Shown here in pieces: positions 37,400 to 61,031 of a stretch of DNA of 64,000 nucleotides (positions are counted from its first letter, which is position 1; each line of letters opens with the position of its first letter). This stretch comes from Planctomycetota bacterium (lineage in GTDB: Bacteria > Planctomycetota > GCA-002687715 > CAIWVZ01): NCBI GenBank assembly GCA_044222185.1, contig JBGANV010000003.1, forward strand, positions 224,001 to 288,000, written 5' to 3'. Both the position numbers and the translations under genes were made by a program. The notes beneath the pieces were generated by a model. It was not told the origin of the DNA. It saw only the letters and a list, made by a program, of their open reading frames with translations, and ran no database searches.

Positions 37400-37540
37400 G
37401 CTCCGACTTTCGGCAGGAAGCGGAGTCAAATCGGAGCCAGCGTGCGGGAAACCCGCCGCGCGGCCCTGGCGGAGCGCCGCCCCCCACCAGCCGTGTCCGA
37501 GGATGCATGCGGCGTCGCTCGGAAGTGCGGGCCCGCGGGA

Positions 37541-39651: not shown

Positions 39652-40572
39652 TCAGGGCAGGAACGTGATCACGACGGCTCGGCGACCCCAACGGTTCTGA
39701 GCGAGCGGAGGTGCACCCGCGCGGGTCGCCGCGCCGAGCGTCAACATGCCATGGGCGACGCAGCGTATACGCTTCTTGTTCACGCCACCGCGGACCAGGT
39801 AGTCCCGCACCGCCACGGCGCGAGCCTCCGAAATGTCCCAGCCGTCGTCGGGGCTCGCGCCTTCCTCGAACGCGTACCCGTCGATGCGGACCTCGAACGA
39901 CGCCGCGGAGATCCCGCGCGCCAGTTCGTCGAGGAACGACGCGTGTCCGCTCGTCAGCGCCGTCGAATCCTGGTCGAAGATCAGCGGAGCGGGCAGCGTA
40001 GACGAACCCTTCTTCGCCATGGCGTCGACGATCACCTTCCGCATGGTGTCGCGGTTCGAATCGAGGATGCGCCCGTCAGGCTCGGCGAGCGTCTTCGTGT
40101 TGATCGAGGCTCCAGGGCGATACACGACGCGCCCCGCGTGAAACTGCACCGGCACGTGCGCGCCCTTCATGCTCCCGAGCGACCCGATCGGAGAGATCCC
40201 CCGCTGGATGGACCCGAGGCCGTCCTCGAGGAGGATCCCCTGCTGCTTGGACGCGAAGGCCGTCAGCAGGATGAAGAAGCACATGAGATTCGTCATGGTG
40301 TCGGCGAACGACAGCAGCCACAGCGGAGCGCTCGGGCCGAAGTCGGGGTGGTGCTCGGCGTGCTTCTTGTGGTGGCCGTGGCCGCCGTGTCCCCCACCGT
40401 GCTCGCCACCATGCCCACCGTCGCCTCCATGTCCGCCGCCGTGACCGTCACCATGCCCGCCACCGCCGTGTTTCTCGGCGCCGTCCTTGTGCCCGGCATC
40501 GTGCTTGGCGGCGTGCCCGTCCTTCGGCTTGGCCGGCGCATGCTCCTTGGGGCTTGCGGGCGCAGCGCTCAC
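39652..40572 (-). CDS. motB: Flagellar stator MotB paralog 2 (His/Gly-rich N-terminus)
   Basis: WLLSFADTMTNLMCFFILL TM with conserved Asp; OmpA-like WDISEARAVAVRDYL. Confidence 0.85.
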   Translation of the reverse strand: MSAAPASPKEHAPAKPKDGHAAKHDAGHKDGAEKHGGGGHGDGHGGGHGGDGGHGGEHGGGHGGHGHHKKHAEHHPDFGPSAPLWLLSFADTMTNLMCFFILLTAFASKQQGILLEDGLGSIQRGISPIGSLGSMKGAHVPVQFHAGRVVYRPGASINTKTLAEPDGRILDSNRDTMRKVIVDAMAKKGSSTLPAPLIFDQDSTALTSGHASFLDELARGISAASFEVRIDGYAFEEGASPDDGWDISEARAVAVRDYLVRGGVNKKRIRCVAHGMLTLGAATRAGAPPLAQNRWGRRAVVITFLP

Positions 40573-41291
40573 TGGACCTGCCTGACGATCACGTCCACGC
40601 GACGGTTCTTGGCGCGACCCGCCGCCGTTTCATTCGACGCGATCGGATACGCAGAGCCCAGCGCCGTGAATCCGATCCTCGCCGGCTCGATGTCCGACGC
40701 CTTCGAGAGGAGCACGGAGACCTTCTGCGCCAGCGCCCGCGTGAGAGCGACGTCGTTGTCGTAGCTCGAGAACTTCCACGTGCGATCATCCGTGTGGGCC
40801 TCCACGATGAACTCGCACGGTTCGCCTCGGAAGAAGTTCCCGATCTCCTCGAGCACGATGGAGGCATCGGGACCGAGTTCGTCGCTACCGGGAACGAAGA
40901 GGGCGGGCTCGGCCAAGCTGACGTGCAAGCCGTCGGCGAGACGCTTCAGGTCGGGCTTCACGGAGTACTCGGCCGATTGGACCTTCTTCGACATCGCTTC
41001 GTCGAACTCCTTCTCGCGACGCTGCGAGCGCTCTTCGGGTCCAACGATGTCACGGGTCCCGTCCTGACCTGGGCGCCTCGCGACGAGCGCCGGGACTTCG
41101 CGGGTCGACTCGGATCCGAAGATGCCCGGATTGCCGGGCCGGAGGTTGCGCCCTCCGTCCGCCGCCGAGCCGGAACTCGAGGATGAGTATGTCGCCATGA
41201 GAATGAAGAAGATGACCAGGTTCGCGATCATGTCGGCGAACGAGATCACCCACAGCGGACAGCCCGGCCCATCACCACCGCCACCGCACAT
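40569..41291 (-). CDS. motB: Flagellar stator MotB paralog 1
   Basis: WVISFADMIANLVIFFILM; OmpA-like EAHTDD...SNETAAGRAKNRRVDV. Confidence 0.88.
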   Translation of the reverse strand: MCGGGGDGPGCPLWVISFADMIANLVIFFILMATYSSSSSGSAADGGRNLRPGNPGIFGSESTREVPALVARRPGQDGTRDIVGPEERSQRREKEFDEAMSKKVQSAEYSVKPDLKRLADGLHVSLAEPALFVPGSDELGPDASIVLEEIGNFFRGEPCEFIVEAHTDDRTWKFSSYDNDVALTRALAQKVSVLLSKASDIEPARIGFTALGSAYPIASNETAAGRAKNRRVDVIVRQVQ

Positions 41292-50454: not shown

Positions 50455-51743
50455 GTCATCCCTCCGGCGGCGAGCGCAGCGGGCTCAGCCGCCGTTCGCG
50501 AAGCCGCCACGCAACGATCGGGCAGGGTGACGAGGAAACCAGCGCCTCCGAGCCGCCCGTCGACGAGTTGGAGCTCGCCGCCGTGCACCTCGATGAGCTT
50601 GCGGGCGACGGCGAGGCCGAGCCCGGTTCCCGACGCCTTGCCGGTGATGAACGGACGGAAGAGCTTGCGGCGCAGATCGGACGGCACACCCGGGCCGGTG
50701 TCGTCGACGCGGATGCTCAGGCCCGTCGACGAGCGGTCGATCGCGACGACGACCCGACCGTCGGGTCCCGTCGCTTCCAGAGCGTTCTTGAGCAGGTTCG
50801 AGAGCACGATCTTCAGCTTGACGCGATCCGCCAAGAGGTTCGTGACCTCACGAATCCCCGTGCATTCGATGGCGGCGTGCCGTTGCGCGCCCGCGAGCAC
50901 GGGCGCATCGCCGATGACTTCCCCGACGAGCTCCGGGAGGCCGAAGGTCGAGCGCGCGAGGCGCTCCGGCCGAGCCCAAAGCAGAAGGTTCGTCACGATC
51001 TCGTTCACCTCGCCGACACCCCGGCGCACGCGATCGACGTAACGCTGCGCCTGCACTCGGTCGATGCCCTCGGCGGAGGCGAGCATGCGAGCGAGCAGCC
51101 CGGCAAAACCCTCGATGCCGTTCAGCGGGTTGCGGATCTCGTGCGCGATTCCGGCCGCCATTTCTCCCAGAGCCGCAAGCGTGTCCAGACGGTTCAACTG
51201 CGTGCGCAGGTGAGACACCTCAGTGAGGTCGGAGATGACCTCGATGCGACCGCCGTCTTCGAGCGTGGCGACGACCGATGACACGCGACGCCGCGACCCG
51301 TCGAACGACTCGACGTCGCGCTCGACCGGGCCCTGTCCACCGCCGAGCAAGGCGAGAAGCGGCGTTCCGTCGCGTGCCGAGACCGCGCGCGCATCGCGCC
51401 CGATCAACTCGAAGGCCGCACGTCCGAGAATGCGCTCGGCGGCCCGATTCATGCTGACGATGCTGCCGTCCCGATCGCAGGCGATCACACCGCACGGGAT
51501 CGCATCCAGCACGCCGTGAAGGTGCCCGGTCACCTGCTCGAGCTCGACGACCTTCTCACGGAGCTGGCCGTTGGCCTCACGCAGGCGCTGGTCCACGCTC
51601 TCGGCACGCATGCGAAGCCGGCCATACGCGGCCTCGAGGTCTCGCGTCACGCGGGTGAAGACGTGGAAGCTCTCCGTGAGCTTCGAGATGTCCTCGACCT
51701 GCGGAGCCGCAGCGGCAGCGCTTTCGATTTCGAGTCCACTCAC
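50451..51743 (-). CDS. PAS-domain sensor histidine kinase (FleS/FlgS-like, soluble)
   Basis: AHEIRNPL H-box, NLLKNA, DTGPG, GTGLGL; PAS ([10 protein letters not shown]); GTG start overlaps upstream stop. Confidence 0.9.
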
Positions 51744-52615
51744 TGTTGTTTCTCTCCGGTCTGCTTGACCCTGTCGATGCGCTTCTTCACGGCGTCGTCC
51801 ACACCCTTCCGGCCGCCTCCGATGCGGAGCATCCAGGAAGCCTGGCGTCCCCAGTGTCCTTCCGGGTCTGCCTTCGCGAGCGCCTCGTAGGCGGCCTTGG
51901 CCTCCGTCCAGCGGTCGAGGCGGTCGAGGGAACGGGCGATGCGGTAGCGATCCTCCGACGTGCGCGCGTCCTCGGGTATCTGGTTCGCGGCTTCCAAGGC
52001 GCCGCTGAAATCCTCCGCCGCGTAGAGCGCCCGGCTCAGGCCCTTGGGGTCGAGCGCCATTGCCCGCGGCGCCGGTTTGGACTCCGCGGCCCGCGGCGCA
52101 GTCACCGGGACGTCGAGATCGACCGCGAGGAGCGCGCTGCCGATCGCCGTCGCCCGGGTCGGTTTGGGAGGTGTCTCCGCCTCGGTGCGCGTGGGCGCAG
52201 CGACGGGCGCGCGCTTCATCTCGTTTGCGAGCGCGAGACGTGAGCGAAGCTCCTCCACGCGCCGGACGTTCTCGGCCCGCGCGGCCTCGGTCGCGTCTTC
52301 CATCGACCGCCCCGTGCCAGGAGCGTCGACGAGGAGCCCGCCTTGCACGCGGGTCAGAAGACCGTTCAAGAGGCGAAGCTCGACTTCCGTCTCCGAGAGT
52401 CGCGCCGAGATCGCCTTGGCCGAGCGGCGGTCGACCCATTGGAGGTGATGCAATGCGTCGCCGACCAGTTCGTCGACGGTCGGCGGGGACTCGCCGTCGC
52501 CGCCACGGGGCTTGGCGGCGTCGTCCTGACTTCCCCCGGAGCGCGTCTGGGACCATGCCGCGAGCGGCAGGAGCACCAGAGCGATCAACACGGCGTTGGA
52601 ATCCAAGCGCCTCAT
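51740..52615 (-). CDS. Exported hypothetical protein, coiled coil + TPR-like C-terminus
   Basis: Signal peptide (VLIALVLLPLAAWSQ); YRIARSLDRLDRWTEAKAAYEAL...PEGHWG TPR-like; ATGA overlap. Confidence 0.65.
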   Translation of the reverse strand: MRRLDSNAVLIALVLLPLAAWSQTRSGGSQDDAAKPRGGDGESPPTVDELVGDALHHLQWVDRRSAKAISARLSETEVELRLLNGLLTRVQGGLLVDAPGTGRSMEDATEAARAENVRRVEELRSRLALANEMKRAPVAAPTRTEAETPPKPTRATAIGSALLAVDLDVPVTAPRAAESKPAPRAMALDPKGLSRALYAAEDFSGALEAANQIPEDARTSEDRYRIARSLDRLDRWTEAKAAYEALAKADPEGHWGRQASWMLRIGGGRKGVDDAVKKRIDRVKQTGEKQQ

Positions 52616-54141
52616 CTCTTTTCCTCCTCGCGACCTTCGAACACGCGAGCCGCCTCGAGCGGCCGCCCCAGCTCGAGCAGAAGCTCGCCGCGAAGCGTCG
52701 TGACCTCCGCCTTCGACGGCGTCGGGTCGATGAAGTCGGCAGCTTTCAGGCGGTCGATGGCCGCGAGCGCGGCACTCTTGTTGCCGGCCCGCCGCTCCGT
52801 GCGTGCGAGGTGGACGAGTGCCGCCGCCCGATACCGCGGCACCGTCGTGAGCGCTTCCAGGGCGCGCGCCGCCTCGTCGTGGCGGTCCGTGTTTCCCAGG
52901 GATCGCGCGAGGACGGCGAGCGCCCGCTCGGCCGTCTGTGAGGCGTCCGGCGTCGCCGCCAGGGTCTCGGTCGCCGAGACGACGGCCTGCTCGAACAGGC
53001 CAAGCCGTTCCTCGAGCTCGGCCTTCATGAGCAACGCGCGACGCTTCTGCAGTCCCTCGGGTCCCAGCGCGAGACAACGCTGGACTGCGACCAGGCCCGT
53101 GACCAGGTCATCCAGCGCCACGAACGCAACCGCCACGGACTCGGCCGCTCGGATCTGCGCCGACTTCTCGTCGACGTTCCGCTGCGCGATGCGCAGCTGG
53201 AGGAGCGCCGATCGGAAGTCCCCCTTCAGCATCAGGCCGATCCCGACGGCGAGTGGAACGTGCTTGGCCAGGTCGGGAAACTCCCGCCGGGCCTCCGAGC
53301 GGAATTCGGCGAGCGCCACGAAGGCGTCGTCGACTCGCTTCGAGTCGAGCTCGAGCTCCGTCAGGAGCAGGCTCGCGACGGCACGAGCGCGCGGCGACGA
53401 TCCCTCGCGAACGACACGCCGCAGCCGGATGCCGGCCGCCTCATCGTCGCCCGCGGCCCGGTGGATCACGGCGGGCACGAGTTCGGCGTTCGCGAGGTCC
53501 GGCAACCCGGCGTCGCTCGCCTCGAGCTGATCGATCGCCTTCTTCGCCGCCGGGAGGTCGCCCGACTTGTAGTACGCGTAGCCCGCGAGCAGCCGCGCCA
53601 TGGGGACCCGTGAGTCCTTGGGGAACTCGGACGTGAACGACTCGAAGCTCACGCCGGCCTCGTGCATCCGCGTGAGGCGGTAGAGCAGATCGGCGCGTGC
53701 GTATCGCACGTCGGCCGCAAGCCGCGGTTCCGCGTGTACGAGGATCGTGTGATCGAGATGATGCATCGCCGCGTCCGCCAACGCCGTCTCCGGATCGCTG
53801 GCCGCGGGCCTCACCTGAAGCCGGTTCTCCTTCACGTCGACGATGAAGCCGGTGCTCGCGCTGATCAGGATCGCGAGCTCGTCGAGCGTGATCCGGGCGC
53901 GGTCGATGGAAATCGTCCGCTGGACCAGATCCGCCATGAGCGCCGGCTCCACACGCAGCTCGACGCCGAACGCCGCGCAGGCGCGAGCGAGCAGGTCCAC
54001 CACCGAGGTGTCGCTGGCATGGATCTCGAGGAGGCGGCTCTGGCTCGCCCCGTTCGCCGCCACGACCGCCCTGCGTTGGCCGGCCACCGGGGACGCCGCC
54101 AACACGAGCAGGAGAACGAGGAGGGCGCCGTTTCGGCTCAT
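52612..54141 (-). CDS. Exported protein with STN/secretin-N-like domain and TPR repeats
   Basis: Signal peptide; IHASDTSVVDLL...ELRV...ISID...TLDELA...VKENRLQV (STN-like); TPRs (FPKDSRVPMARLLAG). Confidence 0.65.
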   Translation of the reverse strand: MSRNGALLVLLLVLAASPVAGQRRAVVAANGASQSRLLEIHASDTSVVDLLARACAAFGVELRVEPALMADLVQRTISIDRARITLDELAILISASTGFIVDVKENRLQVRPAASDPETALADAAMHHLDHTILVHAEPRLAADVRYARADLLYRLTRMHEAGVSFESFTSEFPKDSRVPMARLLAGYAYYKSGDLPAAKKAIDQLEASDAGLPDLANAELVPAVIHRAAGDDEAAGIRLRRVVREGSSPRARAVASLLLTELELDSKRVDDAFVALAEFRSEARREFPDLAKHVPLAVGIGLMLKGDFRSALLQLRIAQRNVDEKSAQIRAAESVAVAFVALDDLVTGLVAVQRCLALGPEGLQKRRALLMKAELEERLGLFEQAVVSATETLAATPDASQTAERALAVLARSLGNTDRHDEAARALEALTTVPRYRAAALVHLARTERRAGNKSAALAAIDRLKAADFIDPTPSKAEVTTLRGELLLELGRPLEAARVFEGREEEKR

Positions 54142-55202
54142 GGCTCCTTCCCCGCGAACGTGACCTTGGGCTCTGGGATCTCGACGCTCGCCGCCTTGTC
54201 ACGCCAGATCGCCGCGACTGCGATCGCCATGCGTCCGTGCGCCCACGCGATGAGGGCCTCCTCGTCGGCTCCCAGGTCACCGGCGCTCATGAGGAACGCC
54301 AGGTACTTCTCGCGGGCGTCCTGCATCCGTCCCGCGACGAAATCAGCATCGGCGGCAGCGAGCCGCGCGGTGCGAGCGGGACCGGGCTCTGCTGACGCAT
54401 CGTCCTGCCCGGAGCCGGCCTCGTCTTGTGGCGTCGGCCTGCCGGCAGCTGCGAGGATCCGCTCGTAGCGGAGCCGCAGCTCCGACTCCCCCTTCGGAAG
54501 GAGGGGCCTGATCCTGACGGCCATCTTCCGCGCGTCGGCGAGTCGGCCGCCGCGAACCGCCGCCTCGGCCAGGACGAGAAGCTCGGTGAGATCGAGGCGG
54601 TCGTGCCCGGATCCAGGACGCGCCGTCGCGGCGACCCCCTCCTGTGCGTGCCCCGAAGCCTCGGCGGAAGGAGAGTGTTCGTCCGTTCCCTCATGCGGCC
54701 TGGCCGCAGGGGCGTGGGGGTCGTGGGCGCCGTCCGCGCCGTCCGCCGTCCCCTCGCCCGCCTCGTGTTCCGACTCGGCAACCGCGTGCGCTGCGTTGCG
54801 GAGCATCAACCACGCGGCCAGCCCGATGATCGTCAGGAGTGCGCCCGCGGCCCCCATGAGCACGAGCTTCCGCCGCTTGGACCGCACCGCGGGGCTCGCC
54901 GTCGGAGCCGGCGCTGCCGGAGCGTTCGCGACAGTCGCGGGCCGTGCTACGGTCGTGCGGGGCGGCGCCGCGCCCGTCTGCGACGGCGGACGTGCCCCCG
55001 TCGCCGGGCGCTGGGCCGTCATCGGCCGCGGCGTCGGCTTGGGTTTCGCCGCGGAGTCGCCGTGCGTCGCCGGACCCGAGACCGTCGCGGGACGCACCGT
55101 CTCTGCGGCCGGCGGTCCTGCGTGCGGAGTGCTGGTGGTCGTCGTGTGGCGGGGTGGACCCGCCACGGCGTCGTGATCAGCGTTGGGTGGCTCGGACGTC
55201 AT
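54138..55202 (-). CDS. Single-pass membrane hypothetical protein (Pro/Ala-rich N-terminus, TPR-like helical C-terminus)
   Basis: KRRK followed by TM (LVLMGAAGALLTIIGLAAWLML); first gene after the sigma54 promoter; its stop overlaps the next gene's start (ATGA). Confidence 0.6.
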   Translation of the reverse strand: MTSEPPNADHDAVAGPPRHTTTTSTPHAGPPAAETVRPATVSGPATHGDSAAKPKPTPRPMTAQRPATGARPPSQTGAAPPRTTVARPATVANAPAAPAPTASPAVRSKRRKLVLMGAAGALLTIIGLAAWLMLRNAAHAVAESEHEAGEGTADGADGAHDPHAPAARPHEGTDEHSPSAEASGHAQEGVAATARPGSGHDRLDLTELLVLAEAAVRGGRLADARKMAVRIRPLLPKGESELRLRYERILAAAGRPTPQDEAGSGQDDASAEPGPARTARLAAADADFVAGRMQDAREKYLAFLMSAGDLGADEEALIAWAHGRMAIAVAAIWRDKAASVEIPEPKVTFAGKEP

Positions 55203-55219
55203 GGCTTCGTTTGCGCTTC

Positions 55220-55235
55220 AGCAAGCGGCGTTCCT
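55220..55235 (-). promoter_or_regulatory. Putative sigma54 promoter of the basal-body operon
   Basis: Minus strand AGGAACGCCGCTTGCT = GG-N10-GC with TTGCT, 17 nt upstream of ATG 55202, directly downstream of a sigma54 activator gene. Confidence 0.62.
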
Positions 55236-59417: not shown

Positions 59418-61031
59418 ATGAAGAAGGGACCCAGGGTCAGCCTCTGCATGATCGCGCGTGACGAGGCGGCCACGATCGCCCGCGCACTCGATGCCGCTCG
59501 TCCATTCGTCGACGAGATGATCGTCGTCGACACCGGATCGGCCGACGACACACGCGCCATCGCGATGGCGCACGGCGCACGAGTCATCGACGAGCCGTGG
59601 GCGGACGACTTCGCCAAGGCCCGAAATAAATCCCTGGACGCGGCGACGGGCGACTTCGCGCTCGTTCTCGACGCGGACGAGTTCATGGATGCGCGGAGCG
59701 GCCGGGAGATGCGCGAGGCCGTCCGCCGGCACAAGACCTACGGCGTGTTCCTACCGATCATCAACCGGTTCGAGGACGGCCGGGTGATCCCCACGCTCAT
59801 CATGCGTTGCTTCGTCCTGCGGAAGGATCTGCGTTTCAAGAACCGGATCCACGAGCAGGTGATCGACGCGCTCAACGAGATCGCCGTCGCCGAGGGCGGC
59901 AAGCTGATCAAGGTCGAGGGCGAAGTGACGCACGTCGGCTACCGCAAGGAGATCGTCGCAAGCCGGCAGAAGAACGAGCGGAACCGCCGGATCTTCGAAC
60001 TTGCGGTCGCAGACGACCCGACCAACGTGTACCTGGCCTACAAGTTCGCCGACTTCCTCCGGCAGTTCCCCGAAGAATCGGAGCGGGCCCGCGCGATCCT
60101 GCAGAAGGCCGCCGAGGACGTCGCCGCGTTGCCGAAGGCCAAGGCCCGAGATCTTCCGTTCGCCGGAGAGATCTTCGCATTGCTCGCGCAGTTGACGCGC
60201 GATGCCGGTGACCCGCGCCGCGGGCTGGAGATCGCGGAGCAGGGGTTTGCCGTGACCGACGTCACGACGAACCTGCGCTTCATCCGAGCGTCGCTCGCCG
60301 TCGATCTCGGGGACGCGCGCACTGCCGCCCGTGAGTTCCGCAACTGTCGCGAGGCACATGGCAAGGTGCTCGTGATCCCCGCTCAGCCCGGCGTGACGAG
60401 CACGCTCTCCGGCGCCGGGCTGGCGCGTGCCCTCCAGATGCTGGAGGAGCACGACGCAGCTCGAGCGGCGATCGAGACCGTCATGGCCGAGGTCGATGAT
60501 CGGAACGAGGCGCTGGACTTCTGGCTCGAGTGTTCCCGCCGATCGGGGCAGTTGAACGCGGCCTTCGGCTTCATCACTGGCTGGCTGACGAAGAACCCGT
60601 CGGACTCGCATGCCTGGTTCGTCGGCGGTCAGCTGCTCTTCGCCGCGCAGATGTTCGCGGAAGCACGCAAGTGGCTTGCCCGCGCGGCAGCGGACCCCAA
60701 CGAACGCGACGCCGCGCGTGGCTGGATCGCCGAGTCGTTCGTGCACGAGTGCAACCTGGACGAGGCGCTGGCAGCGGCCGCCGCGGCGCCTTCCGATCCA
60801 CGGGCGCAGGCCGTCATTGCGGCCGTCAGCGTGGCCGCCGACGTGGAAGTCCCGAGCCTCGTACACCATTGCGACGTCCGCGTGAAGGACGCCTTCCGGA
60901 CGATGGTCCGCAACCTGCAGATGACGGCCGGGGCGCCTGTCGCCGCTCGCCTCGATCGGGCGCGGACGGAGATGAAGGTCTTCGATCCCGCGGGGATGGA
61001 GCTGGTCGTCGACGCATTCGCCGTGGCGTGA
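59418..61031 (+). CDS. GT2 glycosyltransferase with TPR repeats (candidate flagellin glycosyltransferase)
   Basis: VSLCMIARDE, VVDTGSADDT, WADDFAKARN, LDADE, IHEQ, HVGY. Confidence 0.85.
   Translation: MKKGPRVSLCMIARDEAATIARALDAARPFVDEMIVVDTGSADDTRAIAMAHGARVIDEPWADDFAKARNKSLDAATGDFALVLDADEFMDARSGREMREAVRRHKTYGVFLPIINRFEDGRVIPTLIMRCFVLRKDLRFKNRIHEQVIDALNEIAVAEGGKLIKVEGEVTHVGYRKEIVASRQKNERNRRIFELAVADDPTNVYLAYKFADFLRQFPEESERARAILQKAAEDVAALPKAKARDLPFAGEIFALLAQLTRDAGDPRRGLEIAEQGFAVTDVTTNLRFIRASLAVDLGDARTAAREFRNCREAHGKVLVIPAQPGVTSTLSGAGLARALQMLEEHDAARAAIETVMAEVDDRNEALDFWLECSRRSGQLNAAFGFITGWLTKNPSDSHAWFVGGQLLFAAQMFAEARKWLARAAADPNERDAARGWIAESFVHECNLDEALAAAAAAPSDPRAQAVIAAVSVAADVEVPSLVHHCDVRVKDAFRTMVRNLQMTAGAPVAARLDRARTEMKVFDPAGMELVVDAFAVA

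Follow-up and report, generated by a model that had tools for sequence, protein, structure and literature searches.

The flagellar basal-body operon in a 64,000 nt stretch of DNA from a Planctomycetota bacterium (contig JBGANV010000003.1, positions 224,001 to 288,000; called the window below) begins with three genes for envelope proteins, which we name A, B and C. They are followed by genes for a kinase and a response regulator and then by the basal-body, E-ring and stator genes. The features are, in window positions:

56779–55358, minus strand: upstream sigma54 activator, FleQ/FlrA-like, with Asp replaced by Glu in the receiver
55235–55221, minus strand: sigma54 -24/-12 promoter (GG-N10-GC) at the operon head, sequence AGGAACGCCGCTTGC
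55202–54138, minus strand: gene A, 354 aa
54141–52612, minus strand: gene B, 509 aa
52615–51740, minus strand: gene C, 291 aa
51743–50451, minus strand: soluble PAS-HisKA-HATPase kinase of the FleS/FlrB type (Pfam)
50454–49081, minus strand: sigma54-dependent response regulator of the FleR/FlrC type, phospho-Asp and GAFTGA both intact
49078–42993, minus strand: flgB, flgC, fliE, fliF, fliG, fliH, fliI and fliJ (NCBIfam)
42989–42252, minus strand: MotE/FlgY/FlbB-like E-ring protein with an N-terminal hydrophobic segment, a coiled coil and an MgtE_N-like head
42098–39652, minus strand: motA, motB1 (41291–40569) and motB2 (40572–39652)
32811–32332: fliL, about 7 kb beyond the motE/motAB stretch and outside it

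The initial annotation had described a sigma54 promoter followed by three translationally coupled genes, and coordinates, overlaps and spacing all bore this out. Overlaps of 4 nt connect A and B (ATGA), B and C (ATGA), C and the kinase gene (GTGA), and the kinase and regulator genes (GTGA), and flgB starts 2 nt past the stop codon of the regulator gene. The kinase had been called soluble, and no transmembrane (TM) segment was found beside its PAS, HisKA and HATPase domains. The fliD-fliS genes are divergent from the basal-body operon. A scan of the window against Rfam gave 0 matches. Between 48000 and 57200, no sigma70 promoter was found, and the 6 terminator-like matches were not above the 4.1 expected by chance.

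The three genes form a real, vertically inherited flagellar module. Word-based homologue searches with B returned only B itself or generic tetratricopeptide repeat (TPR) proteins. A HMMER scan of 1.84 billion representatives with B yielded 163 matches at E ≤ 0.001, of which the best 150 were examined. We kept 20 homologues that aligned from the N-terminus (18 full-length and 2 truncated proteins, 18%–39% identity) and left out generic TPR matches and three fragments. Since no stretch of B was conserved enough for a genome scan, FliG was used as bait. An alignment built from 21 of 25 FliG matches was used to scan GTDB and resulted in 14 loci, all titled as metagenome-assembled genomes of Planctomycetota. 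Five of them end before the kinase gene, and 9 reach far enough upstream. The order A-B-C-kinase-regulator-flgB was present in all 9, down to a FliG identity of 32%. With start codons set to the in-frame start nearest to the previous stop, the 4 nt overlap was found for A/B in 9/9, for B/C in 8/9, for C/kinase in 9/9 and for kinase/regulator in 7/9 loci.

Two loci, L009 and L012, form a distant group with 32%–33% FliG identity. Among 242 open reading frames, profiles of the near group found the distant B proteins with E-values of 5e-15 and 1e-22 (3e-6 and 7e-5 for the N-domain) and the distant C proteins with 4e-4 and 7e-4 (hhalign 96%). In quickly built trees, A, B and C each reproduced the main FliG clades. 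In a B tree with 29 rows, the members from flagellar loci are spread over 4 clades, which lie to either side of the midpoint root; the genomic context of rows P0010, P0011 and P0066 and of the P0023/P0024/P0052 clade is not known. The flagellar genes of L003 group with those of L001, L002 and the window, and its label, Candidatus (Ca.) Kuenenia stuttgartiensis, looks doubtful.

The promoter sequence AGGAACGCCGCTTGC has 2 mismatches to the sigma54 consensus and is uninformative alone, as the window contains 44 such matches versus 46.8 expected. GG-N2-C-N5-TTGC is invariant in the upstream regions of all 8 near-group loci, and in the shuffled-region control GG-N8-TTGC was present in 0.3%–9% of the shuffles per region. 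In the upstream regions scanned of L009 and L012, no sigma54 site was detected, and a gene for a receiver/anti-sigma-like (RsbW-like) protein precedes A in place of the sigma54 activator. In 6 of the 7 activator copies examined (window, L002–L006 and L008), Glu replaces the phospho-Asp of the receiver site. This upstream FleQ/FlrA-like activator likely drives the operon promoter.

B had been annotated as an exported protein with an STN-like domain and TPRs, and all of these elements were recovered. A Sec signal peptide was recognized by its pattern (hydrophobic N-terminus ending in A-x-A/G-Q) in the window protein and in homologues. The AlphaFold2 model of B has a mean predicted local distance difference test score (pLDDT) of 88.6 and comprises a mixed alpha/beta domain at residues 26–111 followed by about 21 helices (about 10 TPR hairpins), with residues 117–508 wholly helical. 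Folded alone, the N-domain reached a pLDDT of 87.9 and showed a mixed beta-alpha-beta-alpha-beta-alpha-beta-beta order. This model matched an anti-sigma STN domain, DotD, FecA, VirB7 and the N0 domains of EscC, GspD and PilQ with Z-scores of 8.1–9.3 and root-mean-square deviations (rmsd) of 2.2–4.2 over 75–82 residues. The top scores were obtained for 4m0h (Z 9.3, rmsd 3.4, 80 residues aligned), DotD (9.1, 2.4, 79) and FecA (8.7), followed by EscC (8.6) and the N0 domains of GspD and PilQ (8.4 each). The signalling-type matches (4m0h with Z 9.3, 1zzv with 8.7 and 6ovm with 8.4) are tied with secretin N0. Among 48,161 chains, 12 had a Z-score of at least 8, nearly all of them N0/STN. The top rows of a Foldseek search with the N-domain were again N0/STN (E about 0.01), and the best sequence match in the PDB was PilQ N0 (E 0.042). 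The Pfam STN model matched the B family weakly (3/10 members, best E 0.011), and the Pfam families of the window protein were TPR only.

Full-length B returned generic TPR superhelices alone in fold searches. We rejected a secretin or TonB-dependent receptor as an identity for B, which has no outer-membrane beta-barrel and is all helical after the N-domain. CpoB/YbgF was rejected as well, with 38 bits versus a cut-off of 90 and a gene context that is flagellar and not tol-pal. In the ESM Atlas, look-alikes of B (0.97 and 0.95) belong to unnamed clusters, mostly of Planctomycetota.

For A, the annotated anchoring in the inner membrane held; the accompanying word "helical" understates a protein whose homologues have TPR motifs. 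Window A has a single hydrophobic segment from residue 113 (TM helix at about residues 113–131). A TM helix is present in window A and all 9 homologues, each with a more positive N-side, indicating an N-in orientation. The protein consists, in order, of a low-complexity cytoplasmic tail, the TM helix, a periplasmic linker and one or two TPR-like hairpins. The tail is unconserved and unalignable (21–148 aa across homologues), the periplasmic part has 122–223 residues, and the total length is 180–354 aa. In most near-group copies, a conserved C-terminal hairpin is followed by an [LI]PEPxxxF tail. TPR models matched 2 of 9 A proteins scanned, window A itself had no match in Pfam or NCBIfam, and a profile search of the PDB found no specific relative. 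A has the N-terminal TM anchor and periplasmic TPRs of the PflB type, and as an anchor it is FlcA-like too; with 180–354 aa it is too short to be PflB proper, which measures about 800 aa and contains a "hook and loop" formed by an antiparallel beta-pair inside the chain. The cytoplasmic tails of the distant A proteins (L009 1801–2583, L012 1515–2384) bear acidic "EDLF(D/S)FP" motifs.

C had been described as an exported protein with a coiled coil and TPRs. The Sec signal peptide and two or three C-terminal TPRs behind a helical region agreed with this, and the coiled coil shrank to a short heptad-like stretch (residues 59–100, simple heptad score). Two beta-type motifs, G[IV][LI]VD[LV]P and LDVxLDVP, are conserved. 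C shares 34%–44% identity with its near-group homologues and is thus about as conserved as FliF within that group (32%–48%). A CpoB/YbgF-type model matched weakly in 2 of 10 members, and a profile search of the PDB gave no specific relative. An ESM Atlas look-alike of C (0.93) falls in an unnamed, mostly Planctomycetota cluster, and the recognition score of C was below the threshold of the tool. A lipobox was found in none of the A, B or C homologues.

The presence of a MotE/FlgY-like gene and of two MotB proteins with weakened peptidoglycan motifs, as annotated, was confirmed. The E-ring protein matched MgtE_N (E 2.2e-5, just under the cut-off) and the FlbB model (E 0.0018), its gene sits after fliJ as in the other loci, and it has the features that define MotE/FlgY/FlbB. 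A homologue was found in all 10 loci reaching that far. The membrane Asp is retained in both MotB1 and MotB2. In MotB1, HxD is intact but 6 of 7 copies lack the Arg of the "LS..RA" motif; in MotB2, RA is intact but all 7 copies lack the Asp of "GHTD". In OmpA-like domains, the Arg and Asp concerned bind diaminopimelate. Since each MotB lacks one of these residues, neither should bind peptidoglycan normally. In Campylobacter jejuni, the scaffold keeps MotB separated from peptidoglycan, as stated in the part of PMC11870540 considered here.

Tandem motB paralogues with complementary pocket losses beside a single motA were seen in the window (39652–41291), L001–L004, L008 and L012, and by their sequences MotB1 and MotB2 may possibly form an obligate heterodimer. 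The cytoplasmic N-tail of MotB2 is rich in His and Gly in the window, L001 and L003. In L006 (13406–15288), L009, L011 and L013, motE is not followed by motA/motB; directly after it come two fliL genes in L006 and a fliM-like gene in L011. Tandem fliL paralogues, the second divergent, occur in L004 (16575–17506), L006 (14351–15288) and L008 (16508–17478), and the single fliL of the window is parted from motB2 by unrelated genes.

We give a probability of about 55% to the reading that A, B and C form an early (class II) periplasmic spoke/rim scaffold of the motor, akin to PflA/PflB, MotK or FlcA-E with a MotE E-ring. This reading is favored because of the tight flagellar linkage, the co-inheritance, the envelope targeting, and the TM+TPR and beta-domain+TPR architectures, which are like those of PflB and PflA. 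From gene order, targeting and predicted folds, we infer every contact and the location in the motor. The FleQ-like activator would switch on the A-B-C genes along with those for MS-ring, C-ring, E-ring and stators. B would reach from the MotE ring to the stators as a TPR spoke, pinned in the inner membrane by A as a minimal rim. The N0/STN domain of B may be a docking module for the C-terminal strand of A, the beta motifs of C, or neighboring B copies, and C would complete or assemble the spoke as a third subunit or assembly partner. Such a scaffold would recruit and brace MotA/MotB1/MotB2 stators that are unable to grip peptidoglycan normally. A further-reaching version, a distinct three-subunit scaffold of deep-branching planctomycetes built on the ring-forming secretin N0 domain and fully replacing wall anchoring for a pocket-less, heterodimeric MotB1/MotB2 stator, is possible and remains doubtful in our view. 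If true, cells whose wall is plastic and remodelled would have a separate architectural solution for bracing their stators.

Several observations weigh against a scaffold of this kind. Distant-group A proteins show weak homology (E 0.004 in L012, no match in L009, hhalign probability 62%) and were identified mainly by position and architecture. A sample collected with FliG as bait cannot reveal unlinked or non-flagellar homologues, and just 4 of the 20 database homologues of B have a close relative among the locus proteins (53%–99.8%). L006 and L009 keep A-B-C though no motA/motB follows motE in the sequence covered; these genes may lie elsewhere. Neither PflA nor PflB was matched specifically, in sequence or in structure, by the searches made here. 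The match to PflB involved generic TPRs alone (E 7.6e-7) and ranked below those to many unrelated TPR proteins, and the C. jejuni scaffold chain 9hmf_K ranked 36th against full-length B (TMq 0.30, rmsd 23.5). The fold comparison suggested by the initial annotation confirmed the STN domain and showed only generic TPR similarity to PflA/PflB. A PflA-type AMIN beta-sandwich was rejected for the N-domain of B, as the predicted fold is N0/STN (Z 8–9.3); the 50 best fold matches listed included neither an AMIN domain nor a PflA/PflD chain, which leaves room for a weak relation. The distant-group loci may resemble those of cultured "Saltatorellota" strains, and this likeness, if true, would make the scaffold testable. 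In the part of 10.1101/817700 considered, two conserved flagellar clusters are described for this group, and flagella were seen rarely or not at all on the related strains in culture.

Three other explanations were weighed. A, B and C could be flagellum-dedicated periplasmic assembly factors or chaperones, acting in a pilotin-, MotC- or CpoB-like role as TPR adaptors that stabilize MotE or the stators, or that guide the rod and the L/P rings through the unusual planctomycete envelope. The generic similarity of B and C to TPR models of YbgF/CpoB, BamD, PilW and SycD (all below cut-off in the window proteins), the retention of the cassette where motAB is not adjacent (L006 and L009), and the first description of MotE as a chaperone of MotC (PMC13023049, in part) speak for such a role. 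We regard it as unlikely, because the translational coupling of all three genes suggests a fixed stoichiometry, a membrane anchor and a superhelix of 400 residues are better suited to a spoke, and those TPR proteins of other phyla that have been tested turned out to be structural, according to the accessible parts of PMC11870540 and 10.64898/2026.05.29.728556. Envelope genes with a non-flagellar role, such as organization of the outer membrane or the cell pole, that merely share the promoter would agree with the wide occurrence of STN+TPR and YbgF-like architectures in envelope systems, and the linkage sample is biased to flagellar loci. Yet position and 4 nt overlaps are kept at 32% FliG identity, even with a different upstream regulator and promoter (L009 and L012), the B family tree is nested around flagellar members, and no plasmid homologue of C was found in 72,556 records. 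This explanation is quite improbable.

Least probable of all is the periplasmic checkpoint feeding the kinase that the initial annotation had offered besides the scaffold. In this model, the STN domain of B (as in FecA/FecR) and the helix of A would relay progress of assembly in the envelope to the kinase and then to the sigma54 class III genes. The direct coupling of C and the kinase gene in 9/9 loci would suit it, as would the anti-sigma and TonB-receptor signalling domains among the top fold matches of the B N-domain, which score like secretin N0. However, A is the sole membrane-spanning member, and its cytoplasmic tail of 21–148 aa is low-complexity and cannot be aligned. Neither a TM nor a periplasmic part is present in the kinase, and a fleQ-fleS-fleR-fliE-type adjacency is ordinary. 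Kinases of the FleS/FlrB/FlgS type sense the cytoplasmic face of the MS/C-ring, which also counts against a checkpoint.

Further genes of the window were noted. At 37429–32978 (minus strand), a small gene for a zinc-finger anti-sigma-like protein precedes a gene whose 1177-aa product joins an extracytoplasmic function (ECF) sigma factor to a membrane helix and a long beta-repeat periplasmic region. Behind fliD-fliS-fliT-like genes lies a gene for a family 2 glycosyltransferase (GT2) with TPRs (59418–61031, plus strand), a probable flagellin glycosyltransferase. A thioredoxin-like/HEAT-repeat protein is encoded shortly after fliL in the window (31017–29359, minus strand) and in L001 (17762–19021).

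Among the closest known systems is PflA/PflB with FlgY of C. jejuni and Helicobacter pylori. This system and the cassette both pair an exported beta-domain+TPR protein with a TPR protein anchored by a TM helix, and in both the motor has a MotE/FlgY homologue and a MotB apparently uncoupled from peptidoglycan. B differs from PflA by N0/STN instead of AMIN and by about 10 TPRs versus 17, and A (180–354 aa, 1–2 TPRs) is much smaller than PflB (820 aa); the third gene, C, and the position of all three genes inside the basal-body operon are also different. In the parts of PMC11870540 (Feng et al.) that were covered, 66% of 1,365 flagellated species are reported to have a FlgY homologue and about 52% to have a TPR protein encoded nearby; these flagellum-adjacent proteins, mostly single-copy and PflA-like, are treated as potential PflA spokes. 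A "potential PflA" has at least three TPRs, lies within five genes of a flagellar cluster in a genome with FlgY, and has no enzyme domain. With about 10 hairpins, a position 4 genes upstream of flgB and a motE-like gene in the operon, B belongs here. The cassette fits this loose definition and lacks the AMIN and size features of PflA/PflB proper.

Supplementary Table 5 of the same study was covered for 60 of the 215 rows of the Planctomycetes-Verrucomicrobia-Chlamydiae (PVC) group plus a few more. Among these rows, many cultured planctomycetes have a single TPR protein of 700–940 aa, and single flagellum-linked TPR proteins of 690–870 aa occur in Planctomycetia, Phycisphaerae, Nitrospirota and Geobacter. 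In Blastopirellula retiformator, Ca. Brocadia, Ca. Uabimicrobium and two Nitrospira, the TPR candidates are 10–12 accession numbers away from FlgY; in the window, C is 11 and B is 12 genes away from motE. The spacing of accession numbers, which is not gene order, suggests that the published single TPR proteins occupy the same operon slot. These are mostly one protein versus three here; B and C together amount to 800 aa, and a 498-aa entry of Uabimicrobium and adjacent 611- and 312-aa entries of Kuenenia are also similar. It is possible that B and C are a split of one ancestral TPR protein; no fused B+C was found among 160 TPR matches (profiles of the N-domain and of the N-half of C), a set not chosen for that question. 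Strain names of "Saltatorellota" isolates were not found in the rows of the table covered.

MotC, MotK and FlcA-E are described as TPR partners of E-rings and stators in the accessible parts of PMC13023049, PMC10954123 and 10.64898/2026.05.29.728556. MotK/MotC with MotE (Cereibacter, Sinorhizobium) and FlcA-FlcE with FlbB (Borrelia collar) resemble the cassette as periplasmic TPR proteins that partner an E-ring protein and stators, and the collar does so also by its several small TPR subunits and the FlcE gene upstream of the flgB operon. MotK, however, has an AMIN domain, and FlcE is a lipoprotein, unlike A, B and C. Matches to FlcA_CTERM were weak and generic (3/27 B members, best E 6e-4). 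The N0/STN domains of GspD, EscC, PilQ, DotD, VirB7, FecA and PupR share the fold of B residues 26–111, whereas B has no secretin or TonB barrel and carries the domain on a soluble TPR superhelix. It is somewhat probable that A-B-C functions like PflA/PflB, MotK/MotC or the collar TPR proteins, with no demonstrable membership in their families.

No N0/STN-TPR flagellar protein and no such three-gene cassette was described in the literature searched, no paper joined flagellar motor, STN domain and TPR, and nothing on A, B or C was found for planctomycete motors; the supplements of 10.1101/817700 and Extended Data Figure 12 of PMC11870540 may show the genes. The initial annotation had suggested an analogous, undescribed scaffold. 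The scaffold stands as the best reading, and the novelty was overstated: as far as PMC11870540 was covered, only the three-gene N0/STN form appears undescribed. Periplasmic TPR spokes have been proposed to be ancestral to flagellar motors, a claim that outside Campylobacterota, spirochaetes and alphaproteobacteria draws solely on proximity to flagellar genes. The locus provides a three-gene version that is well defined and conserved, has another N-terminal module and goes along with a matching peculiarity of the stators, and from it specific motor densities and contacts are predicted. A flagellum-linked TPR scaffold is itself an already known kind of system; the finding refines this theme and opens no new one, and what appears to be new is the three-gene layout with N0/STN in place of the AMIN domain of PflA.

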